Source of the DNA: Acidobacteria bacterium RIFCSPLOWO2_12_FULL_67_14b
GTDB taxonomy: Bacteria; Acidobacteriota; Vicinamibacteria; Vicinamibacterales; UBA2999
NCBI GenBank assembly: GCA_001768615.1
Contig: MELE01000160.1
Coordinates: 8,547 to 72,546 of the forward strand
Direction of reading: 5' to 3'
Length of the DNA: 64,000 bases
Below, in pieces: positions 20,015 through 51,629 of the stretch (positions are counted from its first letter, which is position 1; the number at the start of each line of letters is the position of its first letter). The translations under genes and the position numbers were made by a program. The notes below the pieces were generated by a model that saw only the letters and a program-made list of their open reading frames with translations, made no database searches and had not been told where the DNA came from.

Positions 20015-22693
20015 ATGAGAAATACAGCTCCCACCGATGCCGCCCAGCTCGAAGCCCTCGAAACCCGGGAGTGGCTCGATTCGCTGGACGACGTGCTCAG
20101 GCACGGCGGTCCGGCGCGCGTCGGCGGTTTGCTCCGCGAACTCGGAATATACGCCCAGACGCAGGGCGTCCGGCTCCCGTTTACGGCCAACACGCCGTAC
20201 ATCAACACGATCAACGCCGACGAACAGGTGCCGTATCCCGGCAGCCGCGAGATCGAGCGCCGGATCAAGAGCCTCGTGCGGTGGAACGCCATGGCCATGG
20301 TCGTGCGCGCCAACCGCGTGGAAGACGGCATCGGCGGCCACATCTCGACCTTCGCCTCGTCGGCGACCCTGTATGAGGTGGGCTACAACCACTTCTTCCG
20401 CGGCCGCGACAACGGCAACGAGGGCGACGTCGTCTACTTCCAGGGCCACGGCTCGCCCGGCATCTACTCGCGCGCGTTCCTCGAAGGCCGCCTGACCAAC
20501 GAACAGCTCGTGAACTTCCGCCGCGAGTTCGCGGAGGGCGGCGGCCTCTCGTCGTACCCGCACCCGTGGCTGATGCCGAACTTCTGGGAGTTCCCCACGG
20601 TGTCGATGGGCCTCGGCCCGATCATGGCCATCTACCAGGCACGGTTCAACCGCTACCTGGAAGACCGCGGCCTCAAGCCGAAGACCGACGCGAAGGTGTG
20701 GGCGTTCCTGGGCGACGGCGAAACCGACGAGCCCGAGTCGCTCGGCGCCATTACGCTCGCCTCCCGCGAGACGCTCGACAACCTGATCTTCGTGATCAAC
20801 TGCAACCTGCAGCGGCTCGACGGCCCGGTGCGCGGCAACGGCCAGATCATCCAGGAGCTCGAAGCGACCTTCCGCGGCGCGGGCTGGAACGTGATCAAGT
20901 GCATCTGGGGCTCGGAATGGGACGCCCTGCTCGCGAAAGACAACGACGGCCTGCTGGTAAAGCGCATGGGCGAGATCGTCGACGGCGAGTACCAGAAGTA
21001 CGCCGTCGAATCGGGCGCCTACGTCCGCAAGCACTTCTGGGGCGCGGACCCGCGGCTGCTCGACATGGTCAAGCACCTCTCGGACGAGCAGCTCAAGAAG
21101 CTGACGCTCGGCGGTCACGATCCGGAAAAGGTCTACAACGCGTTCAAGCGCGCCACCGAAACCAAGGGCGTGCCGACCCTGGTGCTGGCGCGCACGATCA
21201 AGGGCTACGGCGTCGGCGAGTCGGGTGAGGGCAAGAACATCACCCACCAGCAGAAGAAGCTCAACGACGATGAGGTGAAGGCGTTCCGGACGCGTTTCGG
21301 CATCCCGATTTCGGACGACGAAGTGGCGCAGGCGCCGTTCTACCGTCCGGCGCCCGACAGCGTCGAGATGAAGTACATCACCGAGCGCCGCGCCGCCCTG
21401 CACGGACCCGTGCCGAAGCGCGTGGTGCGCGTCGAGCCGATCCAGGCGGACCTCGCCGAGGCGTTCGAGGAGTTCCACAAGGGCACCGAGGCCCGCAAGG
21501 CCTCGACCACCATGGTGTTCGTGCGCCTGCTCTCGAAGCTGCTGCGCGACGAGCAGATCGGCAAGTTTGTGGTGCCGATCGTGCCCGATGAAGCGCGCAC
21601 CTTCGGGATGGAGGCGCTGTTCCGCCAGGTCGGCATCTACGCGCACAGCGGCCAGCTCTACGAGCCGGTCGATCGCGACACGCTCCTGTACTACAAGGAA
21701 GCCTCGGACGGCCAGATTCTCGAAGAGGGCATCAACGAAGCCGGCTCGATGTCGTCGTTCATCGCTGCGGGCACCGCCTACGCCACCCACGGGATCAACA
21801 TGATCCCGTTCTTCATCTTCTATTCGATGTTCGGCTTCCAGCGGGTCGGCGACCTGATCTGGGCCGGCGCCGACATGCGGATGAAGGGCTTCGTGGTCGG
21901 CGGCACCTCCGGCCGCACCACGCTCAACGGCGAGGGGCTGCAGCACGAAGACGGCCAGAGCCATGTGCTGGCGCTGCCGGTGCCGAACTGCCAGTCGTAC
22001 GACCCGGCGTTTGCCTACGAGCTGGCCGTGATCGTCGAGGACGGCATCAAGCGCATGTATCGCGACCAGGAAGACATCTTCTACTACCTGACCGTGATGA
22101 ACGAGCAGTACGAGCACCCGCCGATGCCGGCGGGCGCGACCGAGGGGATTCTCAAGGGCATGTATGTCTGCAGGCCCACCAGCCAGCCGAAGGCGAAGCT
22201 GCGCGCACAGCTGTTCGGCAGCGGCACCATCCTGCTGCAGGCGCTCGAGGCGCAGAAGATCCTCGAAGAGCAGTACGGCGTGGGCGCCGACGTCTGGAGC
22301 GTGACGAGCTACGTCGGCCTCCACCGCGACGGCCACGCGTGCGAGCGCTGGAACCGCCTGCACCCTGCGGAGCCGCCGCGCGTGCCGTACGTGACGCAGA
22401 TGACCAAGGACGCGCCCGGCGTCTTCGTGGCCGCCTCCGACTACTTGAAGACGCTGCCGGATTCGATCGACCGGTGGCTGCCCAAGCCGCTGCAGGCGCT
22501 TGGCACCGACGGCTTCGGGCGCAGCGACTCGCGCGCGGCGCTCAGGAACTTCTTCGAAGTGGATGCGCGCTTCATCGTGCTGGCCACGCTGTATGCCCTG
22601 ATGAAGGACCGGCAGGTCGACGCGGCGCTGGTGCAGCAGGCGATCAAGGACCTCGGGATCGATACCGAGAAGTCAAATCCTGCCATCAGCTAA
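20015..22693 (+). CDS. aceE: Pyruvate dehydrogenase E1 component (homodimeric AceE type)
   Basis: About 890 aa. N-terminus ETREWLDSLDDVL and a ThDP-binding GDGE...N region are colinear with AceE as remembered. Confidence 0.9.
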   Translation: MRNTAPTDAAQLEALETREWLDSLDDVLRHGGPARVGGLLRELGIYAQTQGVRLPFTANTPYINTINADEQVPYPGSREIERRIKSLVRWNAMAMVVRANRVEDGIGGHISTFASSATLYEVGYNHFFRGRDNGNEGDVVYFQGHGSPGIYSRAFLEGRLTNEQLVNFRREFAEGGGLSSYPHPWLMPNFWEFPTVSMGLGPIMAIYQARFNRYLEDRGLKPKTDAKVWAFLGDGETDEPESLGAITLASRETLDNLIFVINCNLQRLDGPVRGNGQIIQELEATFRGAGWNVIKCIWGSEWDALLAKDNDGLLVKRMGEIVDGEYQKYAVESGAYVRKHFWGADPRLLDMVKHLSDEQLKKLTLGGHDPEKVYNAFKRATETKGVPTLVLARTIKGYGVGESGEGKNITHQQKKLNDDEVKAFRTRFGIPISDDEVAQAPFYRPAPDSVEMKYITERRAALHGPVPKRVVRVEPIQADLAEAFEEFHKGTEARKASTTMVFVRLLSKLLRDEQIGKFVVPIVPDEARTFGMEALFRQVGIYAHSGQLYEPVDRDTLLYYKEASDGQILEEGINEAGSMSSFIAAGTAYATHGINMIPFFIFYSMFGFQRVGDLIWAGADMRMKGFVVGGTSGRTTLNGEGLQHEDGQSHVLALPVPNCQSYDPAFAYELAVIVEDGIKRMYRDQEDIFYYLTVMNEQYEHPPMPAGATEGILKGMYVCRPTSQPKAKLRAQLFGSGTILLQALEAQKILEEQYGVGADVWSVTSYVGLHRDGHACERWNRLHPAEPPRVPYVTQMTKDAPGVFVAASDYLKTLPDSIDRWLPKPLQALGTDGFGRSDSRAALRNFFEVDARFIVLATLYALMKDRQVDAALVQQAIKDLGIDTEKSNPAIS

Positions 22694-22727
22694 GGCAGAA
22701 GGCAGAAGGCAGAAGGCAGAATGGCAG
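22692..22727. repeat. Tandem heptamer array (AAGGCAG)x4 plus one variant unit containing the aceF ATG
   Basis: Starts inside the aceE TAA and ends in aceF codon 3. The whole intercistronic spacer is array. Confidence 0.95.
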
Positions 22728-24052
22728 AGTTTATCCTCCCGAATCTCGGTGACGGCGTCGCCCAGGGCGATGTGCTGAAGGTGCTGGTCAAGATCGGCGA
22801 CACGATCGCGGTCGATCAGCCGGTGGTGGAGCTCGAAACAGACAAGGCCACCATTGAGGTGCCGTCGAACGTGGCGGGCAAGGTGAAGGAGATCCGCGTC
22901 AAGGCCGGCGACAAGGTGAAGCCGGGACAGGCCGTGCTCGTCATGGAGAACGGCGCAGGGAGCGCGGCTACGGCCGCACCTGTAGCACCGGCACCGGAAG
23001 CACCCAAGGCACCTGAGGCGCCTTTGGCGTCGCCGTCGGTTGAGCGGCCGAGGGCGCCGGTCGTGGACATCGCCGCGGGCCGCCCGCCGGCGGCCCCCGC
23101 CGCCGCCGCTCTGTCGCCGTCGGTCCACACGTCGTCGCCAGCGGCGCCGTCGGTCCGCCGCCTCGCGCGTGAGATCGGCGTCGATGTGAGCCAGGTCACG
23201 GGCACCGGACCGGGCGGCCGCATCACGCAGGATGACGTCAAGGAGTTCGCCAAGCGCGTCATGCACAGCATCGGCGGAAACGGGCAGGCCGCCGCCGCGT
23301 CGGCGCGGCCGGCCGCCGCCGGCCCGGCGCTGCCGGATTTCACCAAGTGGGGCGAGGTCGAGCGGAAACCCATGACGGGCATCCGCCGCAAGACCTCCGA
23401 GCACCTCAGCCATGCCTGGAACGCGATCCCGCACGTCACGCAGTTCGACAAGGCGGACATCACCCAGCTCGAACAGGTCCGGAAGAAGTACCGCGCCGAG
23501 GTCGAGAAGGCGGGCGGCAACCTCACGGTGACGGCCGTCGCCGCGAAGGTGATCGCGAGCGCGCTCAAGGCGTTCCCGCAGTTCAACGCCTCGGTCGATG
23601 CCGCGGGCGAGGCGATCGTCTACAAGAAGTACGTCCATGTCGGCATCGCGGTCGACACGGAGAACGGCCTGCTCGTCCCGGTGATCCGCAATGCCGATCG
23701 CAAGAACCTGATCGAGCTGTCGGTGGAGATCAACCAGCTCGCCGAGAAGGCCAAGGCGCGCAAGCTGACGCTGGAGGAAATGTCAGGCGGGTCGATGTCG
23801 ATCTCGAACCTCGGCGGCATCGGCGGCACCGCGTTCACGCCGATCATCAACTGGCCCGAGGTCGCGATTCTCGGCATCTCGCGCGGCATCTTCGAACCGG
23901 TGTGGAACGGGACCACGTTCGAGCCGCGGCAGATGCTGCCGCTCTCGCTCAGCTACGACCACCGGCTGATCGACGGCGCCGACGCCATCCGCTTCCTGCG
24001 CTGGGTCGCCGAAGCCCTCGAGCAACCCTTCACGCTTGCCTTGCGCGGATAA
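22721..24052 (+). CDS. aceF: Dihydrolipoamide acetyltransferase E2
   Basis: Lipoyl domain (ELETDKATIEVPS), Ala/Pro linkers, E3-binding domain (PSVRRLAREIGVD) and catalytic DHRLIDGA. Confidence 0.9.
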   Translation: MAEFILPNLGDGVAQGDVLKVLVKIGDTIAVDQPVVELETDKATIEVPSNVAGKVKEIRVKAGDKVKPGQAVLVMENGAGSAATAAPVAPAPEAPKAPEAPLASPSVERPRAPVVDIAAGRPPAAPAAAALSPSVHTSSPAAPSVRRLAREIGVDVSQVTGTGPGGRITQDDVKEFAKRVMHSIGGNGQAAAASARPAAAGPALPDFTKWGEVERKPMTGIRRKTSEHLSHAWNAIPHVTQFDKADITQLEQVRKKYRAEVEKAGGNLTVTAVAAKVIASALKAFPQFNASVDAAGEAIVYKKYVHVGIAVDTENGLLVPVIRNADRKNLIELSVEINQLAEKAKARKLTLEEMSGGSMSISNLGGIGGTAFTPIINWPEVAILGISRGIFEPVWNGTTFEPRQMLPLSLSYDHRLIDGADAIRFLRWVAEALEQPFTLALRG

Positions 24053-24058
24053 CCGACT

Positions 24059-24125
24059 GGCTTGAGGCTTGAGACTTGAGGCTTGAAAGGCCTCAACCCA
24101 AGTCCCAAGCCGCAAGCCCCAAGCC
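24059..24125. repeat. Heptamer array forming an imperfect palindrome: (GGCTTGA)x4 - AAGGCC - (CAAGYCS)x4-5
   Basis: Left-arm units and right-arm units are approximate reverse complements. Occupies the aceF-lpdA spacer up to the lpdA ATG (24127). Confidence 0.9.
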
Positions 24126-24126
24126 T

Positions 24127-25560
24127 ATGTCGACAAGCATTGCAGTAATCGGAGCCGGGCCGGGCGGCTACGCGGCTGCGTTCTATGCCGCCGACCTCGG
24201 GCTGAAGGTCACGCTCATCGACAACGAGAAGAACCCCGGGGGCGTGTGCCTTTACCGCGGGTGCATTCCCTCCAAGGCGCTGCTGCACGTCGCCAAGGTC
24301 CTGGACGAGTCCAAGCACGCGAAGGACTGGGGCATTGAGTTCGGCACTCCGAAGATCGACGTCGACAAGCTCCGCGACTTCAAGAACCGCGTCGTCGAGA
24401 AGCTGACGAGCGGGACCGGGCAGGTCTCGAAGTTCCGCAAGGTCAACTACCTCCGGGGCTGGGCGTCGATCGCCGATCCGAAGACGATCACGGTCAAGAA
24501 GGCGGACGGCGGGGACGAGACGGTCGCGGTGGACTACATGATCCTCGCCACCGGATCGTTGCCGACGAAGATCCCGTCGCTCTCGATCGACTCGCCGCGC
24601 GTCCTCGATTCGACCGGCGCGCTCGACCTGCCGGAGATCCCGAAGTCGATGCTCGTCATTGGCGGCGGCTACATCGGGCTCGAGCTCGGGTCGGTCTATG
24701 CGGCGCTCGGGACCAGGGTCTCGGTGGTCGAGATGACGCCCGGCCTGCTGCCCGGCGCCGACCGCGACCTGGTGAAGTTCCTCTCGCAGCGCGTCGAGAA
24801 GATCTACGAGAGGGTGATGGTCTCGACCCGCGTGACGTCGCTCACCGAGGTACGTAGGGGCGGGTCTTCAGACCCGCCAACCGGCGTGAAGGTGTCGTTC
24901 GAGGGCGAGGGCGCGCCGAAGGAAGCGACCTACGACTACGTGCTCGTCTCGATCGGCCGGCGGCCGAATGCAACGATCGCCGGCCTCGACAAGACCAGGG
25001 TCAAGGTCGACGCGAAGGGGTTTATCGAAACCGACAAGCAGCGCCGTACCGCCGAGCCGACGATTTTCGCCATCGGCGATGTGGCGGGCGAGCCGATGCT
25101 GGCGCACAAGGCCTCGCACGAGGCGCGCGTGGCGGTGGATGCCATCGAGGGCCAGAAGGTCGAGTTCGAACCGGCCGCCATTCCGGCGGTGGTGTTCACC
25201 GATCCCGAGATCGCGTGGGCGGGGCTGACCGAGACGGAGGCCGAGAAGCAGGGTATCAAGATCGAGGTCGCGAAGTTTCCGTGGCCGGCCTCCGGCCGCG
25301 CGATTGCGATCGATCGCGTCGACGGGCTGACGAAGCTGCTGATCGATCCGGAGACGGAGCGCATTCTTGGCGTGGGGATCGCGGGCTCAGGCGCGGGCGA
25401 ACTGATCGCCGAAGGCGTCGTCGCCATCGAGATGGGCGCCACCGCATCGGATCTGAAGCTGTCGATCCACCCGCATCCGACGCTCACCGAAACGCTGATG
25501 GAAGCCGCCGAGGTGTTCTTCGGGCAGGCGACGCACGTCTACAAACCTAAACGAAAATAA
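24127..25560 (+). CDS. lpdA: Dihydrolipoyl dehydrogenase E3
   Basis: GAGPGGY FAD motif, redox-active GGVCLYRGCIPSK, NAD motif GGGYIGLE and C-terminal HPHPTLTE. Carries an in-frame REP hairpin at 24859-24878. Confidence 0.9.
   Translation: MSTSIAVIGAGPGGYAAAFYAADLGLKVTLIDNEKNPGGVCLYRGCIPSKALLHVAKVLDESKHAKDWGIEFGTPKIDVDKLRDFKNRVVEKLTSGTGQVSKFRKVNYLRGWASIADPKTITVKKADGGDETVAVDYMILATGSLPTKIPSLSIDSPRVLDSTGALDLPEIPKSMLVIGGGYIGLELGSVYAALGTRVSVVEMTPGLLPGADRDLVKFLSQRVEKIYERVMVSTRVTSLTEVRRGGSSDPPTGVKVSFEGEGAPKEATYDYVLVSIGRRPNATIAGLDKTRVKVDAKGFIETDKQRRTAEPTIFAIGDVAGEPMLAHKASHEARVAVDAIEGQKVEFEPAAIPAVVFTDPEIAWAGLTETEAEKQGIKIEVAKFPWPASGRAIAIDRVDGLTKLLIDPETERILGVGIAGSGAGELIAEGVVAIEMGATASDLKLSIHPHPTLTETLMEAAEVFFGQATHVYKPKRK
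24859..24878. repeat. REP-like hairpin GGCGGGTC-TTCA-GACCCGCC inside the lpdA CDS
   Basis: Same core as 3572 and 53539. Encodes RGGSSDPP in a segment that is about 8 residues longer than in E. coli Lpd as I remember it. Confidence 0.8.
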
Positions 25561-34568: not shown

Positions 34569-34620
34569 GGCTGGGCCGACGCTAGGCTAAACCCCGGCGG
34601 CCCACAAAGCAAGCCAGCCG

Positions 34621-34676
34621 GAGTCAAGAGTGCAGAGTTGAGAGTTCAGAGTTGAGAGTTAAGAGCCAAGAGCGGC
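34621..34676. repeat. Tandem heptamer array (GAGTNNA)x8
   Basis: The units read gagtcaa, gagtgca, gagttga, gagttca, gagttga, gagttaa, gagccaa, gagcggc. Overlaps the lipA stop and its last codons. Confidence 0.9.
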
Positions 34677-35591
34677 GACGGCGGCGTCGGCCTGTTCGTG
34701 CGCGTGATACGAGCTGCGCACGAGCGGACCCGCCTCGACGTGCACGAAGCCCATGCCGAGGGCAATACGCTTGAGCTCGCGGAACTCGTCCGGGTGGTAG
34801 TAGCGCGTCATCACCGCGTGCCGGTCCGAGGGGCGCAGGTACTGGCCGAGCGTCAGGATCGAGACGCCCACCGCGCGCAGGTCCCTGAAGACCTCGACCA
34901 CTTCGTCGTGCTCTTCGCCCAGGCCCATCATCATGCCGGTCTTGGTCGGGATGGCCGGCGTGAACGCGCGCGCGCGGTCGAGCAGCTCGAGCGTGCGCCC
35001 GTACTTGCCGCCGGATCGCACGGCGCGATACAGGCGCGGCACCGTCTCGGTGTTGTGGTTGAGCACGTCGGGCCGGGCGCGCAGCACCGTCTCGAGCGGC
35101 CCGGCCTCGCCCTTGAAGTCGGGAATCAGCACCTCGACGCGGCAGTCAGGCAGCCGGCGCTTGATCTCGCGGATCGTCGCGGCGAAGCTGGCGGCCCCGC
35201 CGTCCGCCTGGTCGTCGCGATCTACTGAGGTGATCACCGCGTACTTCAGCGCCATCTTCTCGACGGCCTCACCGACCCGGCGCGGCTCGTCGATGTCGAG
35301 CGTCGCCGGCCGGCCGTGCGCGACGGCGCAGTAGGTGCAGGCCCGGGTGCAGACGTCGCCGAGGATCATGAAGGTGGCCGTGCCGTGATGCCAGCACTCG
35401 CCGATGTTGGGGCAGTGGGCATCCTCGCACACGGTGTTGAGCGCGAGGTCGCGCATGATGCCGCGCAGCCGCAGGTAGTTCTCCGACCCCGGCGCGCGGA
35501 CTTTCAGCCAGTCCGGCTTCGGTTCACGCCTGCCCGCCGTAGCCTCGGCGGAGGTGGGGGGGGTCACGAAATGCAGGCGCGATTCGACCAT
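34659..35591 (-). CDS. lipA: Lipoyl synthase
   Basis: CEDAHCPNIGECW auxiliary-cluster motif and CTRACTYC radical-SAM motif. ATG at 35591 preferred over the upstream alternative start. Confidence 0.9.
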   Translation of the reverse strand: MVESRLHFVTPPTSAEATAGRREPKPDWLKVRAPGSENYLRLRGIMRDLALNTVCEDAHCPNIGECWHHGTATFMILGDVCTRACTYCAVAHGRPATLDIDEPRRVGEAVEKMALKYAVITSVDRDDQADGGAASFAATIREIKRRLPDCRVEVLIPDFKGEAGPLETVLRARPDVLNHNTETVPRLYRAVRSGGKYGRTLELLDRARAFTPAIPTKTGMMMGLGEEHDEVVEVFRDLRAVGVSILTLGQYLRPSDRHAVMTRYYHPDEFRELKRIALGMGFVHVEAGPLVRSSYHAHEQADAAVAALGS

Positions 35592-35595
35592 CTTT

Positions 35596-35714
35596 GATCC
35601 AGTGTAACTGAAAAGGCACATCGAATGATCTAATGAGCTCGTGATCGGTTGATCAATCTGTCGAACTTATGAACTGTTGATCTGGTGATCGATCTTGTGA
35701 TCTAAGTGATGATC
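35596..35714. repeat. Degenerate NNTGATC array (9 GATC sites) left of the four-helix-bundle gene
   Basis: GATC counted at 35596, 35627, 35643, 35651, 35679, 35687, 35691, 35699 and 35711. The stretch is AT-richer than its surroundings. Confidence 0.85.
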
Positions 35715-35830
35715 GAGAACATTGCCATGCCTCTGACCGCGGGGTATGGCGATTCCTGCGACGCTTCCGAGCGCCAGTCGGCGAAATCCGCCCGATCTCT
35801 GACGGTACGACCGATGCAGCGGCTTGGGCC

Positions 35831-36229
35831 ATGGATAGAGAGGAACTCGAAGCAAGAACAAAAGCCTTTGCCGTCGCCGTCATCGCGGTTTGCGATTCCA
35901 TCCGCGCCCATCCCGAGGGGAAGACCGCGGCTAAACAGCTACTGGACTGTTCCTCGTCGGTCGGAGCAAACTATCGGGCAACGTCCCGCGCGCGATCGCG
36001 CGCGGAATGGATCGCCAAGTTGGGGACCGTCGTGGAAGAGGCCGACGAATCGGCCTACTGGCTGGAGGTGGCAGACCAAGCGGGGCTAGGTGACCGGACA
36101 ACGGTGAGGCGCCTGCTCATCGAAGCCCGTGAACTCCGCGCGATCTTCGCCAAGTCGTACGCGACCTCGCGCCGGAATCACCGAAGGGGCCGCTCAAAGG
36201 ATCAATCACAAGATAGATCAAAAGACTGA
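35831..36229 (+). CDS. Four-helix-bundle protein (23S rRNA intervening-sequence protein / Avd-like family)
   Basis: 132 aa. SSVGANYRATSRARSRAEWIAKLGTVVEEADESAYWLEV matches the remembered family core (..NY.EA......DF..KL.I...E..E..YWL). The C-terminal tail is encoded by the flanking tandem array. Confidence 0.8.
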   Translation: MDREELEARTKAFAVAVIAVCDSIRAHPEGKTAAKQLLDCSSSVGANYRATSRARSRAEWIAKLGTVVEEADESAYWLEVADQAGLGDRTTVRRLLIEARELRAIFAKSYATSRRNHRRGRSKDQSQDRSKD

Positions 36230-36291
36230 TCAGTAGATCCCAAGATCAACAGCTCAATAGACAGATCACCAGATCGCCAGATCACGAGATC
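36200..36291. repeat. Degenerate AGATCANN array (9 GATC sites) right of and overlapping the 3' end of the four-helix-bundle gene
   Basis: GATC at 36200, 36216, 36228, 36236, 36244, 36264, 36272, 36280 and 36288. The last four units are regular 8-mers. This is the reverse complement of the left array motif. Confidence 0.85.
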
Positions 36292-36296
36292 AAAAG

Positions 36297-36992
36297 ATGC
36301 CAACATTAGCAATAACCTGGTTAGGCCATTCGTCCTTCCGCCTGAGAACGCCGGGTGGGAAAGAGATTCTCTTCGATCCCTGGTATACGGGCAATCCCGT
36401 GTTCGTCGAGGCCTCGCGGCCGAAGGCGGCGGACCTCATCCTCGTGTCGCACGGTCACAGCGATCACATCACCGACGCCGCCGCGATGGCGAAGGCGACC
36501 GGGGCCACCGTCGTCGGCATCTGGGAGGTGGCGACCTGGCTCGGATCGAAAGGCGTTCAGCACATCGAGCCGATGAACAAGGGCGGGACGATTACGGTCA
36601 AGGGCCTCCGCATCACCATGACCGACGCGCGTCACAGCAGCAGCTTCGACGACAACGGTTTCGTCTACCTGGGCGAGCCGGCAGGATTTGTCGTGAAGCT
36701 GGAGAACGGCCAAACGATCTACTTCGCCGGCGACACGTCGCTGTTTGGCGACATGAAGCTCGTCGGCGAGCTCTACAAGCCCGACATCGCGTTCCTGCCG
36801 ATCGGCGATCGGTTTACCATGGGGCCCGACACCGCCGCCATGGCGGCGCAGTGGCTCGGCGTCAAGCAGGTGGTGCCGATGCACTACGGCACGTTCCCGC
36901 TCCTCACCGGCACGCCGGAGCTGCTCGAGCAACAGCTGGCGGGGACGGGGATCGAGGTACTGAAGCTGAAGCCCGGTGAAACGGCTCAGTAG
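36297..36992 (+). CDS. MBL-fold metal-dependent hydrolase (UPF0173-like)
   Basis: ITWLGHSSF...LVSHGHSDH metallo-beta-lactamase motif. 231 aa. Confidence 0.8.
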   Translation: MPTLAITWLGHSSFRLRTPGGKEILFDPWYTGNPVFVEASRPKAADLILVSHGHSDHITDAAAMAKATGATVVGIWEVATWLGSKGVQHIEPMNKGGTITVKGLRITMTDARHSSSFDDNGFVYLGEPAGFVVKLENGQTIYFAGDTSLFGDMKLVGELYKPDIAFLPIGDRFTMGPDTAAMAAQWLGVKQVVPMHYGTFPLLTGTPELLEQQLAGTGIEVLKLKPGETAQ

Positions 36993-39347: not shown

Positions 39348-40774
39348 TGATTTCCAGCGAACGTATCCCCAACAACGTCGACCTGGCCGGCAACAAGCGC
39401 CTGCAGCGGGCGCTCGAGCACTGGCAGCCGGCCTATCTCGATTGGTGGCGCGACATGGGGCCGCCCGGGTTTCAGGACAGCCACCGCGTCTACCTGCGCA
39501 CCGCGGTGAGCGTCGACGCGGCGGGCTGGGCGCACTTCGACTTCGTGAAGCTCCCCGAGTACCGCTGGGGCATCTTCCTCGCGGAGCCGACGCCGGATCG
39601 GCGGATCGGCTTCGGCGACTTCAAGGGCCAGCCCGTGTGGCACGAGGTGCCCGGCGAGTTCCGCAACCAGCTCCGCCGCCTGATCGTGATCCAGGGCGAC
39701 ACCGAGCCGGCCAGCGTCGAGCAGCAGCGGTCGCTCGGCGCGCACTGTCCGAGCCTGTACGACCTGCGCAACCTGTTTCAGGTGAACGTCGAGGAAGGCC
39801 GCCACCTCTGGGCCATGGTCTACCTGCTGCACTCGTACTTCGGGCGCGACGGCCGCGAAGAGGCCGAGGCCCTGCTCGAGCGGCGCAGCGGCAACGACGA
39901 CACGCCGCGTATGCTCGAGGCCTTCAACGAGCCCATCGACACCTGGCTCGACTTCTTCGCGTTCACGATGTTCACCGATCGCGACGGCAAGTCGCAGTTG
40001 CTGTCGCTGTCGGAAAGCTCGCTCGATCCGCTGGCGCGGACCACGCGCTTCATGCTGACCGAAGAGGCACACCACATGTTCGTCGGCGAAACCGGGATCG
40101 CCCGCATTCTCGAACGCACCTGCCAGCTGCTGCGCGAGTCGGGCTTCTCGGGCGACGTGCGCCGGTCCGGCGGCATCGACCTGCCGCTGGTCCAGAAGTT
40201 CGTCAACTTCTGGTTCAGCCAGAGCCTCGATCTCCATGGCAGCGAAGTGTCCAGCAACGCGGCCGCCTACTTCTCGAACGGCCTCAAGGGCCGCGCCGAG
40301 GAGGACAAGTTCGGTGACGACCACGTGCTGGCGGCGAACATGTACATGCTCGACCTGCTGGACGCGAGCGGCCGCATCACCAGGGAGGAAGTGCCGATGC
40401 GCAACGCGCTGAACGAGGTGCTTCGCGACTGGTATGTCGGCGACTGCCAGGCCGGCGTCGATCGCTGGAACAAGCGCGTGCTCGAGGCGCACGGCATGTC
40501 GGATCGGATCGTCCTGCCGTCCCGGAAGTTCAACCGCCGCGTCGGGGTGTATGCGGGCAGGCACTTCGACCCGATGGGCAACATCCTGACGCCCGAGGAA
40601 TGGGAGCGCCAGAAGCCCGAGTGGCTGCCGACCGCCGCCGACAAGGCGTTCCTGCACAGCCTGCAGGTCACGCCGGTGTACAAGCCGGGGCAGTTCGCCA
40701 ACTACATTGCGCCGCCCCAGCGTGGCATCAACCGGCAGCCGATCGACTTCGAGTACGTGCGGACCGAGGGCTAA
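39347..40774 (+). CDS. boxB: Benzoyl-CoA 2,3-epoxidase, diiron oxygenase subunit B
   Basis: 475 aa. N-terminus SERIPNNVDL..NKRLQRALEHWQP.YLDWW and YLRTAVSVD match BoxB as remembered. ATG overlaps the boxC TAA. Confidence 0.85.
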   Translation: MISSERIPNNVDLAGNKRLQRALEHWQPAYLDWWRDMGPPGFQDSHRVYLRTAVSVDAAGWAHFDFVKLPEYRWGIFLAEPTPDRRIGFGDFKGQPVWHEVPGEFRNQLRRLIVIQGDTEPASVEQQRSLGAHCPSLYDLRNLFQVNVEEGRHLWAMVYLLHSYFGRDGREEAEALLERRSGNDDTPRMLEAFNEPIDTWLDFFAFTMFTDRDGKSQLLSLSESSLDPLARTTRFMLTEEAHHMFVGETGIARILERTCQLLRESGFSGDVRRSGGIDLPLVQKFVNFWFSQSLDLHGSEVSSNAAAYFSNGLKGRAEEDKFGDDHVLAANMYMLDLLDASGRITREEVPMRNALNEVLRDWYVGDCQAGVDRWNKRVLEAHGMSDRIVLPSRKFNRRVGVYAGRHFDPMGNILTPEEWERQKPEWLPTAADKAFLHSLQVTPVYKPGQFANYIAPPQRGINRQPIDFEYVRTEG

Positions 40775-40809
40775 GAAGGCAGAAGGCAGAAGGCAGAAGG
40801 CAGAAGGCT
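40775..40809. repeat. Tandem heptamer array (GAAGGCA)x5, same unit as at 22692
   Basis: Fills the entire 33-nt gap between the boxB TAA (40774) and the convergent stop at 40808-40810. Confidence 0.95.
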
Positions 40810-41236
40810 ACTGGATGACGATCCGGCCCTGGAGGCCGGTATTCTCCGGCAGGTTGTGATCGTGGAAGCCGCAGGTCCGCACGGTGTTCAGGTTGCCCGT
40901 CGTGCGCTGCTGGCCCGGCGTGAGGAAGCCCACCTGGTTGATCTCGGGGCACTGCGTGTGCTCCGGATGCGGATCCGACGACATGTCGTGCGCCAGCGTG
41001 TGGTTGTTGATGAACGTGACCCGTCCGCCGGGCGCGACCGTGACCGACGACGGGCTCACCGTGCCGTTGGCGCCGATCGTGATCGTGGCCGTCGACGGGT
41101 TGCCGCCCGTGCCGGGCGTTGTCGGCGTCGTCGGCGTCGTGGGTGTTGTCGGCGTCGAACCGCCGCCGCCGCACGCCGCCACCGTGGCCGCCGCCACCAC
41201 CGCCGCCGCCACCGCCATCCACACCGATTGCCTCAT
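40808..41236 (-). CDS. Lipoprotein with cupredoxin-like beta-sandwich domain (His/Cys-rich)
   Basis: Lipobox VAAC, a (TPT)n linker, then VTVAPGGRVTFINNHTLAHDM...CGFHDH. Confidence 0.55.
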   Translation of the reverse strand: MRQSVWMAVAAAVVAAATVAACGGGGSTPTTPTTPTTPTTPGTGGNPSTATITIGANGTVSPSSVTVAPGGRVTFINNHTLAHDMSSDPHPEHTQCPEINQVGFLTPGQQRTTGNLNTVRTCGFHDHNLPENTGLQGRIVIQ

Positions 41237-42608: not shown

Positions 42609-42665
42609 CGCCGTGTGCGGAGTTGTCGCGTGGCGTAAGAACTTACGCTGAGCGTAAAGGCGCGG

Positions 42666-44030
<1,365 letters not shown>

Positions 44031-44032
44031 AG

Positions 44033-45796
44033 TCAGGAGTCGGATCCGGGCGCGTCGCCGATCTCGACGCGGAAGTCGGTGCCCGCGCCGAGCGTGGTGG
44101 CCACGCCGATCGACCCGCCGAGGCCTTCGACGATGTTCTTGGCGATGGCGAGGCCGAGTCCCGTGCCCGCGCGCCTCGTCGTGAAGTATGGATCGAAGAT
44201 GCGCGGCAGATCATCCTCCGCGATGCCGCGGCCGTTGTCGCGGATGGTCACCGCCACGCGGCGATCGCCGATGCGCTGTGTCACCAGGCGCACGCGGGCG
44301 GACGGCGGCGCCGCGGCGGCCTGGGCGTCCTTGGGCGGCTCCACCGCATGCTGCGCGTTGGTGAGCAGGTTCACCAGCACCGTCCGCAGGCGCTCGCCGT
44401 CGGTGACCAGGTCGGGGAGCGACGGCGCCAGGTCGAGCGTGACCTGCCCGGCCCCCTCACCGGCGCCGGCGGCGGCCGCCGCATCGCGGCACACGGCGTT
44501 GACGTCGGTCGGCGCGGGATCGAAGCGGATGGGGCGCGCCACGTCGAGGACGTCGTTGACGAGGCTGTTCAACCGGTCGATCTCCTCGTCGATGTCCTGG
44601 GCCGCGTCCCGCACGTCGGCGGGGCTGGCGCCGTCACGGTCGAGCGTCCTGAGCGCGCCCTTGATGATCATCAGCGGGTTCCTGACCTCGTGCGCGATCA
44701 CCGTGGACAGCCGGCCGAGCGACGACAGGCGCTCGCGCTGGCCCGCTTCCCGCTGGAACCCCGCAATCGAGTCGGTCAGCGAGTTGAACGTCGTCGCCAG
44801 CATGTGCGCGTCATCGTCATCCCAGCCGCCGCGCGGCTTGGTGGCGATCTTGCGGCTGAGGTCGCCGGTGGCGGCCAGGTGCCGCATGTGGTCGGTGATG
44901 GCCGCCAGCGGGCGCGTAATCGTCCTGGCGACGGCATAGCTGACGACGATGGCCAGCAGCGTGGCGCCGAGGGCAATGGCGCCGAGGGCCGCCTGGATGC
45001 TGCCGAGCGTGCGCATCCGCTCGCTGCGCGACCGCATCACGATGGCCGCCGGATCGGTGGCGCCGTTGCCGGTCCCGAGCGGCTGCACCTGCGCCACGTA
45101 TTCTTCGCCGCCGATCAGCACGCGGGCCGGCCGTGTCGCACGCAACAGCGGGGCGAGCGTTTCGGCGGCGCCCGGTCCCAGCGTCGACGCGCGCACGGCC
45201 CCGGCCATCGCGAACGCGATGTCGGCGCCCGTGAGCAGCTTGAACTGCGCCGCGCGCCCGTCGTCGAGCAGGTAGCCGAGGCTGAGCACGCCCAGAATGT
45301 CGGGCCGCTCGATGCCGACGGTCACCGGCACGCTGACCACCTCGAGCACGCCGCGGGCGTGGGGCCAGAAGGCCGGAGAGACCACGCCGTCCATCGCCAG
45401 TTGCAGGTCGGGCGTGCGCTCGATGATCGCGGCGCGGTCGCCCGCTCGCGCCAGCGTCTCGCCGCGCCGGCCGGTGACGATGAGCAGGTCGGCCCCCGCC
45501 TGCTCCTGATAATCCTTCGCGATCGGTTCGATCGTCGGCGAATCCTGGGTGTCGACCGCCGACTTGAACTTCGGAAGGTCGGCAATGAGCCGGGCGGTGC
45601 GCGCGACATTGTCGAACTGGGTGCGCCGCTGCTCGTCGACGAGCGTCGCCGCCTCGGTCAGGTCGCGCTGGAGCTCGGCCTCGGTCTCGCGCGTCATCCG
45701 GGCGCTGATGAAGAACACGGCGGCGCCGATCGACAACATGGCCAGCAGCGCGCTCGCCAGGAAGATGCGGTTGGTAATCGATCCCAGGACCCGCAT
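44033..45796 (-). CDS. Sensor histidine kinase (periplasmic sensor domain-HAMP-HisKA-HATPase)
   Basis: Two TM segments flank a sensor domain of about 270 aa. H-box (IAHEVRNPL) plus N and G boxes (DNGRGI, GTGLGL). The ATG at 45796 overlaps the upstream TGA. Confidence 0.85.
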   Translation of the reverse strand: MRVLGSITNRIFLASALLAMLSIGAAVFFISARMTRETEAELQRDLTEAATLVDEQRRTQFDNVARTARLIADLPKFKSAVDTQDSPTIEPIAKDYQEQAGADLLIVTGRRGETLARAGDRAAIIERTPDLQLAMDGVVSPAFWPHARGVLEVVSVPVTVGIERPDILGVLSLGYLLDDGRAAQFKLLTGADIAFAMAGAVRASTLGPGAAETLAPLLRATRPARVLIGGEEYVAQVQPLGTGNGATDPAAIVMRSRSERMRTLGSIQAALGAIALGATLLAIVVSYAVARTITRPLAAITDHMRHLAATGDLSRKIATKPRGGWDDDDAHMLATTFNSLTDSIAGFQREAGQRERLSSLGRLSTVIAHEVRNPLMIIKGALRTLDRDGASPADVRDAAQDIDEEIDRLNSLVNDVLDVARPIRFDPAPTDVNAVCRDAAAAAGAGEGAGQVTLDLAPSLPDLVTDGERLRTVLVNLLTNAQHAVEPPKDAQAAAAPPSARVRLVTQRIGDRRVAVTIRDNGRGIAEDDLPRIFDPYFTTRRAGTGLGLAIAKNIVEGLGGSIGVATTLGAGTDFRVEIGDAPGSDS

Positions 45797-46565: not shown

Positions 46566-47858
46566 TTAGAACCAATAGAGCACCTGCGCGGTCATCATCG
46601 TGTCGCCCCGCACGCGCCCGCCGTCGCGGTGATTGCGCTGCCAGGCGCCTTTGATCTGGATGTTGCGCATGATCGAGTAGCCGCCGCCGGCCTCGATCCG
46701 CCACACATTCGAGTCCCAGGTCTGGGGCCCCCGCGTCGTCGAGAGGGTGCTGAAGTCGAGGCGATCCGCCCGGGCCGCGAGGTAGGCGCCCGGCGCGACC
46801 TTATAGCGGCCCTCGAGCAGGAACGAGGTGGCCACCAGGGGCCCCTCGATCATCGGCGCCGCGATCGCCGGCATCGCCCACGACGAGCGGATGGCCTCGC
46901 CCCGGACGAGCACGCGACCGGCCGAGAACTCCGCGTCGCCGCCCACCGCGGTCTGGTTCGGCCGCTCGGCCGTGCGCGCATCGAACGATCGATCGAGCCA
47001 CGAGCCGCGCGCGGCCGACACGCCGAATGCCAGGGCCGGCGTCGGCCGCGTGACGACGCGGCCGGCAAGCTGGCGGCCGCCGTTGTTGTCCCGCAGCCGC
47101 GGATCCGAGAGCGAGCCCACGCTGATCGCGCCGGTCCACTCGAAGACGCCGTTCACGCCGTGCGCCTGGATGCCGGTGTCCCAGCGTGACGTGTTGACCA
47201 TCGGGAGGCCCGGACCCGGCTCGGTGTTGCCGATGGGGAAGTTCGACAGCCATCCGCGCCCGCGCATTCGCACGAGGTCGTCGGCGTTGGCCGGCAGCGC
47301 ATCGGAGCGGATCGACAGCAGGTACTGATACGCGAGGGGTTGCCCCACCAGCAGGTTGCCGCTGCCGTACGCCGTGCGCGTCATCGAGCCGAACGTCGGC
47401 GGGATGCGGCCGGCCTGCAGATCGAATCGCCGGCCGGGCCACGGACGGATCCGCAGGAACAAGCCATAGGCCTCGAGCACATGACCCTGGTCGAGCCGCA
47501 CCTCGCCGAGCACCTGCACGTGATCGTTCGCGCGCACTTCGACCGAGACCCCCAGCCGGAGATTGCGGATGGCGCTGTATTCGTAGCTGGTGTAGTTGAA
47601 GAAACCGGGATCGTCCGGCGCGAGCGTGGCCGCAACTTCGGCGCCCAGCACGAAGTGTCCGCCGGCGAGGGAAATTGGTTGTTCGGGCAGCAGCTGCGCC
47701 GCGGCCTCGCGCGCCGGGCCGAGCGCGAGGATCCCGCCCAGCACCGAGCACCTCAGCACCGAGCACCTCAGCACCGAGCACCTCAGCACCGAGCACCTCA
47801 GCACCGAGCACCTCAGCACCGAGCACCCAAGCACCCGAGCACCCAAGCACCTAAGCAC
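46566..47858 (-). CDS. Outer-membrane beta-barrel (porin-like) protein, N-terminus built from a tandem repeat
   Basis: C-terminal ...QVLYWF terminus, alternating strands and a cleavage-like AAAQ. The first roughly 40 codons (VLRCS x5) are the 15-bp array, so the true start is uncertain. Confidence 0.6.
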   Translation of the reverse strand: MLRCLGARVLGCSVLRCSVLRCSVLRCSVLRCSVLRCSVLGGILALGPAREAAAQLLPEQPISLAGGHFVLGAEVAATLAPDDPGFFNYTSYEYSAIRNLRLGVSVEVRANDHVQVLGEVRLDQGHVLEAYGLFLRIRPWPGRRFDLQAGRIPPTFGSMTRTAYGSGNLLVGQPLAYQYLLSIRSDALPANADDLVRMRGRGWLSNFPIGNTEPGPGLPMVNTSRWDTGIQAHGVNGVFEWTGAISVGSLSDPRLRDNNGGRQLAGRVVTRPTPALAFGVSAARGSWLDRSFDARTAERPNQTAVGGDAEFSAGRVLVRGEAIRSSWAMPAIAAPMIEGPLVATSFLLEGRYKVAPGAYLAARADRLDFSTLSTTRGPQTWDSNVWRIEAGGGYSIMRNIQIKGAWQRNHRDGGRVRGDTMMTAQVLYWF

Positions 47859-47861
47859 CCC
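47739..47861. repeat. Tandem array: (CAGCACCGAGCACCT)x5-6 followed by NNAGCACC 7-8-mers (16 AGCACC cores)
   Basis: Read directly. Lies in the divergent region between the porin-like gene and the DUF4097 gene and forms the annotated porin N-terminus. Confidence 0.95.
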
Positions 47862-47866
47862 AAAAG

Positions 47867-47881
47867 TATAATGCCCGCGTG
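47867..47881 (+). promoter_or_regulatory. -10 box TATAAT placed 6 nt before the GTG start (leaderless-type arrangement)
   Basis: The sequence is TATAATgcccgcGTG with no SD. Lies directly after the tandem array. Confidence 0.4.
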
Positions 47882-50817: not shown

Positions 50818-51579
50818 ATGGAATCAGCCTCGTCCTCAGCACGCGTCCAGGCCGCCGCCACTTCCATCGACAAGGCCCTCAAGGTCTGCGAAGTCCTCAG
50901 CGGCGTGCCTCGCGGGATGAGCCTGTCGGATCTGGCCCGTGCCGTCCGCCAGCCGGCCTCCACCGTCCATCGCCTCCTCGCGGTCCTCAAGCGGCGCGGC
51001 TACGTTCGCAAAGATGACGAGTCGCAGCGCTACGGCCTGACCTTGAAGATGCTCGACCTGAGTTTCCGTTCGCTCGGGCAATCGGAATTACGTCTGCACG
51101 CGTACCCGATCATGCGCGAGTACGTCCTGCGCACGCCGTACCGCGGGTTCATCGCGATTCCGTCGAGTGGCGAGGTCACCTACGTGTGGAGCACCGGCCC
51201 GGACGAGGTGGCGATGCGGACCGTCTACGGGAAGGAAATGCCGGGGCACTGCGCGATCTATTTTTCGCCGCGCCAAGCCACGCGCCGCCTCAGTTGCCTG
51301 CGGCTCGCCACGTCCGCGGAATTGAGCAAGCCCGAGGCCACCGTCATTCGCCTCGGGCCGCCGCCGATGGAACCCGATGCGCTCCAGCGCCTGTTCTGCA
51401 CCTGCGCGCCGGTGCGCGATTACACGGGGCAGGAAGTGGCCCGCGTCGGCGTGTTCGGGCACGGCGCCGACGATGGTCCCATCCTGACGGAACATCACCG
51501 CGGCGCGTGGGACCTGGCGCGCCGCATCTCGATGCGCCTCGGCCACGTGGCAGCCAGCGCGCTCGAAAGCACGGCATAA
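50818..51579 (+). CDS. IclR family transcriptional regulator
   Basis: N-terminal wHTH SIDKALKVCEVLSG...MSLSDLARAVRQPASTVHRLLAVLKRRGYV. ATG 50818 chosen, though GTG 50737 is possible. Confidence 0.75.
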   Translation: MESASSSARVQAAATSIDKALKVCEVLSGVPRGMSLSDLARAVRQPASTVHRLLAVLKRRGYVRKDDESQRYGLTLKMLDLSFRSLGQSELRLHAYPIMREYVLRTPYRGFIAIPSSGEVTYVWSTGPDEVAMRTVYGKEMPGHCAIYFSPRQATRRLSCLRLATSAELSKPEATVIRLGPPPMEPDALQRLFCTCAPVRDYTGQEVARVGVFGHGADDGPILTEHHRGAWDLARRISMRLGHVAASALESTA

Positions 51580-51582
51580 CCC

Positions 51583-51617
51583 TGAACTCTGAACTTTGAA
51601 CTCTGAACTCTTAACTA
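51583..51617. repeat. Tandem heptamer array (TGAACTC)x4-5, reverse complement of the GAGTTCA unit at 34621
   Basis: Starts 4 nt after the iclR TAA and lies upstream of fdxA. Confidence 0.9.
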
Positions 51618-51629
51618 CAAGGATCAGTA

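Follow-up and report, generated by a model that had tools for sequence, protein, structure and literature searches.

A cassette of about 0.68 kb (positions 35621-36296 of the window, the whole 64-kb stretch of DNA analysed here) appears to have been set into the short divergent spacer between lipA and the gene for an MBL-fold hydrolase, and the inverted arrays of short repeats at its two sides would be its cis-acting ends or exchange handles, bound by the four-helix-bundle (4HB) protein that it encodes. We give this joint reading a probability of about 0.5. The cassette is related to the intervening sequence (IVS) of 23S rRNA in its ORF-bearing form, but is free-standing. The locus is composed of the following features:

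34659-35591, minus strand: lipA, lipoyl synthase (Pfam Radical_SAM and LIAS_N; confirmed by gene calling on this contig)
35589-35591, minus strand: start codon of lipA
35592-35620: lipA-proximal ancestral spacer CTTTGATCCAGTGTAACTGAAAAGGCAC, also found at the empty junctions L129, L133 and L140
35621-35714: left arm, a degenerate array of units of about 8 bp (nnTGATCT, GGTGATC), with 8 GATC sites and 41% GC
35748-35763: imperfect palindrome GGCGATTCCTGCGACG, recognized by eye in the upstream regions of relatives
35803-35818, plus strand: putative sigma54-type -24/-12 motif CGGTACGACCGATGCA, from motif scoring across Acidobacteriota loci
35831-36229, plus strand: 4HB gene (S23p, 23S-IVS protein, Avd-like; PF05635, TIGR02436)
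35831-36178, plus strand: core of the 4HB gene; its tail, 36179-36229, runs into the right array
36196-36296: right arm, an array with the unit AGATCAnn and 9 GATC sites
36297-36992, plus strand: MBL-fold hydrolase gene (Pfam Lactamase_B_2/3; synteny)

A preliminary description of this DNA had placed a 399-bp gene of the four-helix-bundle family between lipA and the MBL-fold gene, which the HMM matches and gene calls bear out (132 aa), and had called the islet AT-richer than its surroundings, which also holds: the GC content is 41% in the arrays and 61% in the 4HB gene, compared with 68% in the window, and GC3 is 0.67-0.72 in the 4HB gene versus 0.85-0.95 in the neighbouring genes. The HMM search and structure prediction that it had proposed both gave clear results. 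The ORF matches PF05635 (E 1.7e-9, 38.3 bits, cutoff 33.8), TIGR02436 (62.5 bits, cutoff 24) and, at E 1.7e-18, the PDB entry 2rld_A, and the AlphaFold2 monomer model (pLDDT 94.1) predicts a four-helix fold with helices at residues 3-25, 30-53, 57-84 and 89-130. Foldseek retrieved the S23p proteins 2RLD (TM 0.73-0.88) and 2GSC (TM 0.7-0.8) and also the Avd proteins of diversity-generating retroelements (DGRs; 8UB7, 4DWL); the 2GSC and Avd structural matches share just 9-15% sequence identity with the 4HB protein.

The resemblance to Avd, whose pentamer serves as a scaffold and, together with the reverse transcriptase, binds nucleic acid (PMC10053308), extends to the fold and the basic surface, and the gene might thus be taken for the remnant of a DGR. 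However, by structure and by sequence it is the S23p proteins 2RLD and 2GSC, and not Avd, that match best, the genes called within 10 kb on either side include no reverse transcriptase, no template/variable repeat was found in the 30-42 kb region, and no DGR part lies beside the gene at any related locus examined, so that, unlike a DGR Avd, the window gene stands without these partners. An orphan Avd is the least probable of all the explanations considered. As the preliminary description had also stated, rRNA is missing too: the Rfam search of the 64-kb window detected neither rRNA nor any other Rfam family.

The last codons of the gene were correctly recognized earlier as array units, the C-terminal tail of the protein overlapping the right array, and the tails of 4HB homologues differ in both length and sequence. 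The dN/dS ratio is 0.11-0.24 in all pairs, showing that the protein evolves under purifying selection; since dS is raised while this ratio stays low, in-situ hypermutation of the gene was rejected. The window contains one 4HB copy only, and its protein is 86% identical to that of the paralogue L015 and 80% identical to that of the syntenic L016, a gap too small to argue from, and gene conversion between loci was therefore dropped as an explanation.

The arms are degenerate, and TRF detects fragments of them only. Nine GATC sites were counted in the left flank (35596 to 35711) and nine in the right flank (36200 to 36288), in agreement with the preliminary description; the sites are spaced by 4-32 bp, often by 8 bp. 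The left array, which had been given as 35596-35714, is real, but begins at about 35621, because 35592-35620 is ancestral spacer that is also found at the empty sites of relatives. The claim that the GATC sites are clustered beyond expectation stands insofar as no other part of the window reaches the density of the arm clusters (8-9 sites per 120 bp versus a maximum of 7 elsewhere), but the expected value of one site per 300-350 bp had been a mononucleotide expectation only, and the real density is one per 95 bp (673 sites in the window, a 3.5-fold over-representation). An epigenetic switch of the divergent lipA/MBL region, based on Dam-type methylation or SeqA-like binding at the arrays, would account for the number and close spacing of the sites and for the retention of GATC in the arm units across Vicinamibacterales. 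Nevertheless, this is extremely improbable: GATC is over-represented throughout the window anyway, relatives with an empty site run lipA and MBL from a 23-bp spacer, and the homologous arms of other clades lack GATC altogether, so that GATC is not an essential feature of the arms and a Dam-based mechanism was rejected as a general explanation.

On the plus strand the left arm is G/T-rich, and the right arm is C/A-rich and G-poor. The longest inverted pair within the 30-42 kb region is formed by 35656-35703 and 36251-36298, and the inverse local alignment of the two flanks scored 43, whereas 616 control positions averaged 20 and never exceeded 32, confirming that the right array is the reverse complement of the left motif. 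Local alignment scores were used in place of the sharing of inverted 7-mers, because the background of the latter is high in high-GC DNA (mean of about 8). At orthologous loci the left arm is kept in kind, and the conserved end of the right arm, ...CACGAGATCAnCAG abutting the ATG, is seen in relatives.

Comparison of the lipA/MBL junction among related genomes, which had been suggested as a check, revealed clean empty sites: relatives with a lipA protein 85-89.5% identical have spacers of 23-48 bp at this position. The 4HB gene and its arms travel together, and they are missing as a block from close relatives. Between occupied and empty junctions about 20 nt of the old spacer are replaced, and neither a target-site duplication nor a sharp element terminus was visible when the two were compared. 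Of the 83 related loci that allowed scoring, 32 have the MBL gene directly 3' of a 4HB cassette, and on an MBL tree of these 83 loci the distribution of 32 occupied and 51 unoccupied sites, with a wholly empty outgroup, corresponds to at least 14 state changes, a number that is approximate because the tree (neighbour-joining on 231 aa) is poorly resolved.

In addition to being present or absent, the block is exchanged for strongly divergent alleles while its flanks stay almost identical. The loci L020 and L028 encode MBL proteins that are 98% identical and 4HB proteins that are 67% identical, with a dS of 0.15 for MBL versus 1.29 for 4HB (4HB dN/dS 0.18). The nucleotide identity profile is 95-100% in lipA, 70-78% in the left arm and 20-88% in the interior of the islet, and climbs again within the right arm, reaching 98% at the MBL ATG; identity thus declines from the outer edge of each arm towards the interior. 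Among occupied loci MBL and 4HB identities correlate weakly (Spearman 0.27). It should be noted that fast turnover of the arrays by slippage could contribute to sharp boundaries of divergence.

The arms also persist in other surroundings. They are kept in L023 despite a changed left neighbour, and the question whether paralogues are flanked by arrays was answered positively for L015 and L012 (amidohydrolase locus), which carry them on both sides; the DNA of the paralogues is 75-77% identical, and this over promoter and gene only. Exchange of the cassette must be rare, because no variation in the arrays was seen among 11 conspecific contigs and synteny at the locus holds throughout the order; the identity of these 11 contigs also led to the rejection of hypervariable arrays. 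The preliminary notion of a mobile or recombination-prone cassette is therefore upheld by the empty sites, the patchy presence and the replacement of whole islets, but not in the sense of an actively moving element: there is no sign of recent transposition, given the order-wide synteny, the lack of a target-site duplication and the 75-77% identity of paralogue DNA.

These data bear on the possibility of a classical transposon or MITE, in which the arrays would be terminal inverted repeats with multiple binding sites, the transposase would act in trans and the 4HB gene would be cargo or accessory. In its favour, the arms are inverted subterminal repeat arrays, they bound a block that is present or absent at one and the same site, and ORF-less forms exist. 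The ends of Tn7, Mu and plant En/Spm likewise contain multiple short subterminal sites that are inverted between the two ends. Scattered gene-less intergenic hairpins resemble, in turn, the REP/BIME hairpin repeats. Unlike transposons or REP/BIME, however, the cassette lacks a transposase or RAYT-type enzyme, occupied and empty sites reveal no target-site duplication, near-identical copies were not found, and it is stable across the order; no transposase, recombinase or reverse transcriptase was found in or near it (gene calls within 10 kb on either side; PADLOC and PHROGs, both without hits). A classical transposon is thus very unlikely.

Inverted flanks were also found around other members of the family, well beyond the Acidobacteriota. 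In a sample of 80 PF05635 loci from many phyla, which are not fully independent (about 20 come from one locus, lipA-MBL, and about 10 from Mucilaginibacter), the inverse flank alignment reached z > 3 in 68, and 63 lay above the 95th percentile of control genes (p = 5e-36), the median being 45 for 4HB genes versus 18 for 512 other genes of the same loci. These results support the view that inverted flanks are a family-wide property of 4HB genes across phyla. The polarity of the arms is fixed, G-rich when read inward and G-poor when read outward, with G exceeding C in the 5' arm in 61 of 62 loci. The units are clade-specific, yet a GAT[TC] core recurs in them across phyla, and a comparison of consensus units, which is crude because the phase drifts, reached p-1 matches in the inverse orientation for 8 of 22 loci and in the direct orientation for none.

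Arrays also exist without the gene. A strict detector (25 of 32 matches) overlooked the two flanking arrays on account of their degeneracy; with a relaxed criterion of 30 of 48 matches, 10 shuffled copies of the window gave 0.0 hits on average. The window contains ten arrays of period 7 or 8 belonging to about five unit families, all of them intergenic. The preliminary description had held that similar arrays in other intergenic DNA, or at junctions lacking the gene, would speak against its reading, and in part they do occur: the window holds eight gene-less arrays besides the 4HB flanks, and some relatives without the gene retain arrays of other units (hairpins at the lipA-MBL junction in L134, L157 and L159) or a remnant of the right arm at this junction. 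One gene-less inverted pair (24059-24125) lies between the E2 and E3 genes, and the orthologous spacer in L013, a locus with several gene-less arrays, also has such a pair, with units of the GATC type. Arms can therefore exist without the protein.

These gene-less forms speak for a generic origin, according to which short-period arrays are common to the intergenic DNA of the whole lineage, perhaps as slippage products kept as G-poor translation leaders or terminator-like hairpins, and would not be part of the 4HB unit; the 4HB gene would merely sit in, or preferentially insert into, the loop of a hairpin that was already there. Published heptamer arrays are likewise situated just 5' of start codons, where they replace the Shine-Dalgarno motif (PMC4679880). 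Against this, many non-Acidobacteriota loci contain the two 4HB-flanking arrays as the only arrays in 12 kb; outside the Acidobacteriota 41 of 82 arrays fall within the gene-adjacent 8.6% of the sequence, an enrichment of about 10-fold; the complementarity of the 4HB flanks far exceeds that of the 512 other genes; the arms persist at paralogous loci and in L023; and their units have the GAT[TC] core in common across phyla. We regard a generic origin as unlikely.

The heptamer arrays resemble the arms also in being intergenic tandem 7-8-nt units of lineage-specific families, as do cyanobacterial STRR arrays, and the right arm, which abuts the MBL ATG in place of a Shine-Dalgarno motif in the window and likewise in relatives, occupies the same position. 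However, the units differ (nnTGATCT and AGATCAnn in the window), TAACTGA arrays are absent from all loci examined, and the TAACTGA arrays of Beggiatoaceae, Cyanobacteria and Bacteroidetes are direct repeats with almost no inverted partners (PMC4679880). The paper describing them contains neither "four helix" nor "S23" (PMC4679880).

A closer relationship exists to the ORF-bearing IVSs of Leptospira, Coxiella and Xanthomonas, in which the same protein family is encoded in the loop and complementary termini are able to form a long stem around the ORF. The link to rRNA intervening sequences that had been drawn earlier is therefore apt: in the IVS of Coxiella, which has an S23p ORF, inverted repeats at the termini form a stem, and GACAGAT heptamers lie in tandem (three to four, part of the 5' arm; PMC4990558). 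IVS elements have long been suspected to be selfish or mobile (PMC4990558). The window unit differs from them in its site between protein-coding genes, outside rRNA, in its arms, which are degenerate arrays of about 95-100 bp instead of a 28-bp stem, and in having its own putative sigma54-type promoter. Both groups include ORF-bearing and ORF-less forms side by side, ORF-less IVSs occurring in Salmonella and other bacteria.

The ability to form a stem is shared. In silico, cofolding of the arms yielded a gain of -34.9 kcal/mol, compared with -16.4 +/- 4.2 kcal/mol when the right arm was shuffled (z = -4.45), and in the minimum free energy structure of the 705-nt sense strand 67 left-right pairs enclose the ORF. 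As a single-stranded nucleic acid, the arms could thus zip into a predicted stem of about 67 bp. This might operate at the level of RNA as in IVSs: RNase III would cut the stem, the 4HB message would be excised or destabilized, the flanking cistrons would be uncoupled or regulated, and exchange of DNA would be incidental. RNase III does cut the Coxiella IVS stem at the first heptamer (PMC4990558), the outward G-poor arm adjoins start codons, and in 51 of the 80 sampled loci the genes on either side run in the same direction, separated by short gaps only, which would place both arms on one transcript. At the locus studied here, however, lipA as the upstream gene is transcribed divergently, and the ORF is separated from the left arm by a conserved promoter motif, making a shared sense transcript of both arms unlikely. 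Furthermore, the antisense strand folds equally well (70 pairs), and the mismatches in arm pairing show no excess of G-U on the sense strand (97 G-U versus 128 A-C), so that wobble pairing lends no support to selection on an RNA stem. An RNA-level mechanism is hence doubtful, to about the same degree as the generic origin discussed above.

We favour instead the reading in which the arms are cis-acting ends of the cassette. Because their units are common to all copies in a lineage, they would act as portable handles for homology or pairing, through which cassettes would be exchanged, inserted or deleted by recombination. We infer that the basic, Avd-like protein, as a pentamer, may bind the units of the arms, or these units when single-stranded, and that the arm-bound protein would help to keep or spread the cassette. 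A broader proposal, tentative and on balance improbable, would be that PF05635 genes with inverted short-period arms form a widespread, hitherto undescribed class of exchangeable intergenic cassettes, that gene-less hairpins are their non-autonomous derivatives and the rRNA IVS a special landing site, and that the protein recognizes units of the GAT[TC] type, probably in single-stranded form, thereby driving retention or spread. If this were true, some of the unexplained heptamer and octamer arrays in Bacteroidota, Cyanobacteria, Acidobacteriota and other groups would be footprints of 4HB cassettes.

The "four helix bundle protein" family (PF05635/TIGR02436) is large and very widespread in bacteria, and according to the paper on the Coxiella IVS its proteins are still without a known function, although rRNA IVSs carrying them were described in the early 1990s (PMC4990558). 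Repeat-flanked free-standing PF05635/S23p members were not found described in the literature, in a search of incomplete coverage. That free-standing members keep IVS-like inverted arms of short repeats across many phyla provides a testable handle on the family: the fixed polarity of the arms and the recurrent GAT[TC] core suggest which nucleic acid to use in binding assays, the swapping of the whole unit between near-identical genomes, with the protein under purifying selection, indicates which loci to compare, and retention or exchange of the cassette and control of the downstream gene are suggested as phenotypes. The arms may also point to an origin for some intergenic heptamer and octamer arrays that lack an explanation, and in annotation they can be used to delimit 4HB cassettes.

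Control of the downstream gene is of interest in view of the promoter region. The sigma54-type motif ends 12 nt 5' of the 4HB ATG, and a score of at least 13/16 (criterion: GG-N10-GC, TGGCAC / TTGCA flavour, conserved position) was reached in 23 of 31 Acidobacteriota loci, compared with 0.7% of control windows. In nearly all of these 23 loci the motif stands 11-13 nt away from the ATG, and the spacing implies a leaderless 4HB mRNA. Thus, a conserved sigma54-type promoter probably precedes the 4HB gene. The palindrome at 35748-35763, for which the relatives suggest the consensus GTCGCAG-N3-CTGCGAC (by eye, without statistics), is a candidate activator site for this putative promoter, and a gene for a sigma54 activator is present in the window.

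No sigma70-type promoter and no intrinsic terminator were found within 35400-36500, including the gap between the 4HB and MBL genes, and the right arm extends to the MBL start codon without an evident Shine-Dalgarno motif. The insertion would have cost the MBL gene its own promoter; the gene is probably co-transcribed from the promoter of the cassette, and the G-poor, outward-facing right arm would now serve as its leader. On the other side of the cassette, a function of the arrays as 5' leader of lipA was rejected, because a conserved spacer with a -10-like box separates the left arm from lipA. This box, TACACT, was recognized by eye on the minus strand of 35592-35620.

The window belongs to a metagenomic Acidobacteriota genome of Vicinamibacterales type. 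The open reading frame at 35831-36229 encodes 132 aa and passes the gathering threshold of PF05635; it also matches TIGR02436 ('four helix bundle protein'). By superposition of the AlphaFold2 model (pLDDT 94.1, four helices), the closest structures are 2RLD and 2GSC of the S23p family, with the Avd protein of diversity-generating retroelements (DGR) next. These matches and the gene calls agree with the earlier assignment of a 23S-IVS/Avd-family gene (four-helix bundle, 4HB) between lipA and an MBL-fold gene. GC3 is 0.67-0.72 in the 4HB gene versus 0.85-0.95 in its neighbours. In one of 11 conspecific contigs (L011, 4001-4354), a 52-bp deletion inside the gene (window 36113-36164) shifts the frame; the copy may be a genuine pseudogene, or the assembly may be wrong there.

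Features around the 4HB gene
34659-35591, minus strand, lipA, left neighbour
35748-35763, palindrome upstream of the sigma54-type motif, seen by eye
35803-35818, sigma54-type motif upstream of the 4HB ATG, scored
36297-36992, MBL-fold gene (MBL), right neighbour

Nine GATC sites lie on each side of the 4HB gene, and the arrays have 41% GC versus 68% for the window. The preliminary description had set this clustering against one site per 300-350 bp, but that figure is merely compositional: GATC is 3.5-fold over-represented (673 sites in the whole window versus 192 expected from base composition), at a real density of one per 95 bp with the majority of sites inside coding sequence. Nevertheless, the two flanking clusters are the densest of the entire window. 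The left array had been placed from 35596 onwards, but the first 29 bases past lipA (35592-35620) recur at empty junctions of relatives and are ancestral spacer, so that the array starts at about 35621. That the two arrays are inverted to each other is borne out in several ways: 35656-35703 and 36251-36298 form the longest inverted pair in the stretch from 30 to 42 kb of the window, co-folding of the arms gains -34.9 kcal/mol versus -16.4 +/- 4.2 with shuffled right arms, and the MFE fold of the 705-nt islet contains 67 long-range pairs joining 35634-35714 with 36200-36292 around promoter and ORF. An equally good fold is obtained for the antisense strand. The initial observation of a 4HB gene bracketed by inverted arrays is confirmed.

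The proposal that gene and arrays form a mobile cassette is partly supported and considerably extended: absence as a block, patchy occupancy and block replacement argue for it, while gene-less arrays and the absence of array variation among 11 conspecific contigs argue against it. A scan with the MBL protein yielded 80 junctions. Many close relatives (lipA 85-89.5% protein identity) lack the 4HB gene and have a clean lipA-MBL spacer of 23-48 bp (for example, CAT, then CTCTTCTAAGTATATTAGGTGCC, then ATG), and the stretch AGTGTAACTGAAAGG is common to the window and the spacers of L129, L133 and L140. Of 83 scorable related loci, 32 have the 4HB gene immediately ahead of MBL, including some whose 4HB protein is just 55-63% identical. 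In a neighbour-joining tree of MBL, occupied loci (32) and unoccupied ones (51) are intermixed, with at least 14 state changes and a wholly unoccupied outgroup. The left arrays at related loci consist of nnTGATCT or GGTGAGCT units and the right arrays of AGATCAnn or ACCTCACC units; their kind is conserved but not their sequence and length, and ...GAGATCAnCAG directly before the MBL ATG is the constant end of the right arm. L023, whose left neighbour is not lipA, retains a left arm of perfect (GTTGATCT)x5. Arrays also flank both sides of the paralogues L015 and L012, which sit at an amidohydrolase locus and are homologous to the window at the DNA level over promoter and gene only.

Among occupied loci, 4HB identity hardly follows MBL identity (Spearman 0.27). 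Between L020 and L028, the MBL proteins are 98% identical and the 4HB proteins 67%; at the nucleotide level, lipA is 95-100% identical, the value declines where the left arm begins, is 20-88% in the islet interior and rises again along the right arm, reaching 98% at the MBL ATG, and dS is 1.29 for 4HB versus 0.15 for MBL. Because of this profile and dS contrast, and because dN/dS is 0.11-0.24 in all compared 4HB pairs, the alleles are, on this comparative evidence, old, functional and swapped as a block. Hypermutation of the 4HB gene in place is ruled out by the same dN/dS and dS values. Judged from the sequences compared, gene and arms make up an IVS-type cassette that is free-standing and exchangeable; the 4HB protein's role and the exchange mechanism are what we infer.

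Seven of ten contigs with an identical 4HB protein (contig ends L004-L010) terminate at window 35317-35633, in the 5' part of lipA or the left array, and L004 1-229 has no match to the window whatsoever; these ends could reflect an assembly break at repeats or another left context in that population. L027 contains two 4HB genes (2134 and 6001) and, at ~5720-5800, a right-type array ending CAGATG, ~40 bp (ATG...CAT) and a left-type array, the arms facing outward as if two cassettes adjoined or an intervening gene had been lost.

A genome scan with the 4HB alignment yielded 80 loci from Acidobacteriota, Bacteroidota, Planctomycetota, Verrucomicrobiota, a Deltaproteobacteria MAG, Armatimonadota, Nitrospirota and others; they include orthologous groups and are not all independent, and at least eight lineages show the inverted-flank pattern. 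Upstream and downstream flanks align in inverse orientation with z > 3 at 68 of the 80 loci (median z 12.4), and the median flank score is 45 versus 18 for 512 other genes of the same loci (63/80 above the 95th percentile, p = 5e-36). Period-7/8 arrays lie beside the 4HB gene at 26/28 Acidobacteriota loci and 30/52 others, where half of all arrays fall within the 8.6% of sequence adjoining the gene. The units are clade-specific and complementary across arms (TAATGCTT // AAGCATTA; GGATTGCG // CGCAATCC; ATTTTGGA // TCCAAAAT), and a GAT[TC] core is common to many unrelated lineages (CGGATTT, GGATTGCG, GGTGATCT). G exceeds C in the 5' arm of 61/62 loci, so that by symmetry the outward-read arm is G-poor on either strand. 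The generality across phyla, arm polarity, common unit core and block replacement should interest specialists.

The closest precedent for the window cassette is the Coxiella IVS, which combines an S23p ORF with a stem of terminal inverted repeats that RNase III cleaves and includes tandem GACAGAT heptamers, 3-4 of them depending on the strain (PMC4990558). RNA processing of the arm stem, to which this precedent lends weight, is the main rival to a role at the DNA level, and an RNA stem would be possible at the 51/80 loci where 4HB lies in a co-directional gene string with short gaps. In the window, however, the left arm lies upstream of the internal promoter and beside a divergent gene, and arm mismatches show no sense-strand G-U excess (97 G-U versus 128 A-C). 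For these reasons, we favour arms that act at the DNA or single-strand level, as cassette ends and homology handles. A DGR survey remarks on the likeness of PF05635 to Avd (PMC10053308), and TAACTGA heptamer arrays occur just upstream of start codons (PMC4679880); full-text searches of incomplete coverage returned no description of repeat-flanked, free-standing PF05635-family members.

A sigma54-type -24/-12 motif, (C/T)GGCA(C/T)G-N4-nTGC(A/T), ends 11-13 nt ahead of the 4HB ATG in nearly all Acidobacteriota loci (orthologous positions in L012-L038) and scores at least 13 of 16 in 23/31 Acidobacteriota loci versus 0.7% of control windows. This position implies that the 4HB transcript would be leaderless and activator-dependent, and its expression regulated. 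The window also encodes a sigma54 activator and a histidine kinase, at ~42659-45789. Neither a sigma70-type promoter nor a terminator was found between the 4HB ORF and MBL, and the occupied site, by eye, has lost the -10-like box that empty sites show 6-7 nt ahead of the MBL ATG; from this loss we infer that MBL is probably co-transcribed from the cassette. In cassette-less relatives (L098, L100, L106, L111, L105, L116), the divergent lipA and MBL are just 23 bp apart, TATATT preceding the MBL start codon by 7 nt and TATACT lying on the opposite strand, which suggests leaderless mRNAs for both genes.

Eight more short-period arrays of about five unit families occur in the window, every one intergenic.

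Gene-less arrays in the window (the first seven of period 7, 8 or 15 bp)
19219-19313, array
22679-22734, array
34608-34692, array
40750-40830, array
47739-47878, array
51562-51637, array
51945-52002, array
24050-24135, inverted pair (GGCTTGA)x4 then (CCCAAGC)x4, between the E2 and E3 genes of a 2-oxoacid dehydrogenase cluster

The inverted pair folds into a hairpin of -38.8 kcal/mol (z = -5.9), and the orthologous E2-E3 spacer of L013 (1145-1280) contains a gene-less pair of like architecture, but with GATC-type units. At the lipA-MBL junction, many relatives lacking the gene have a clean spacer, but L134/L136, L157 and L159 have inverted arrays that enclose no gene and whose units are quite different, and L103 has a right-arm remnant only. 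The eight window arrays, the L013 pair and the junction arrays speak against the view that such arms simply belong to the 4HB gene. By analogy with ORF-less IVSs beside ORF-bearing ones, gene-less arrays may be cassette derivatives; they may equally well form a background of their own. The units of the seven further arrays recur in either orientation (GGGTGCWT / AAGCACCC; AAGGCAG x2; AGAGTTC / AACTCTG; a third TGATCT-type array), several adjoin stop or start codons, and TATAAT follows the 15-mer array 47739-47851. The extremely array-rich genome of Maribellus (L060) has ten short-period arrays in a 12-kb locus, of the GGAATGC, GTAAAAG and CCGTTCA families.
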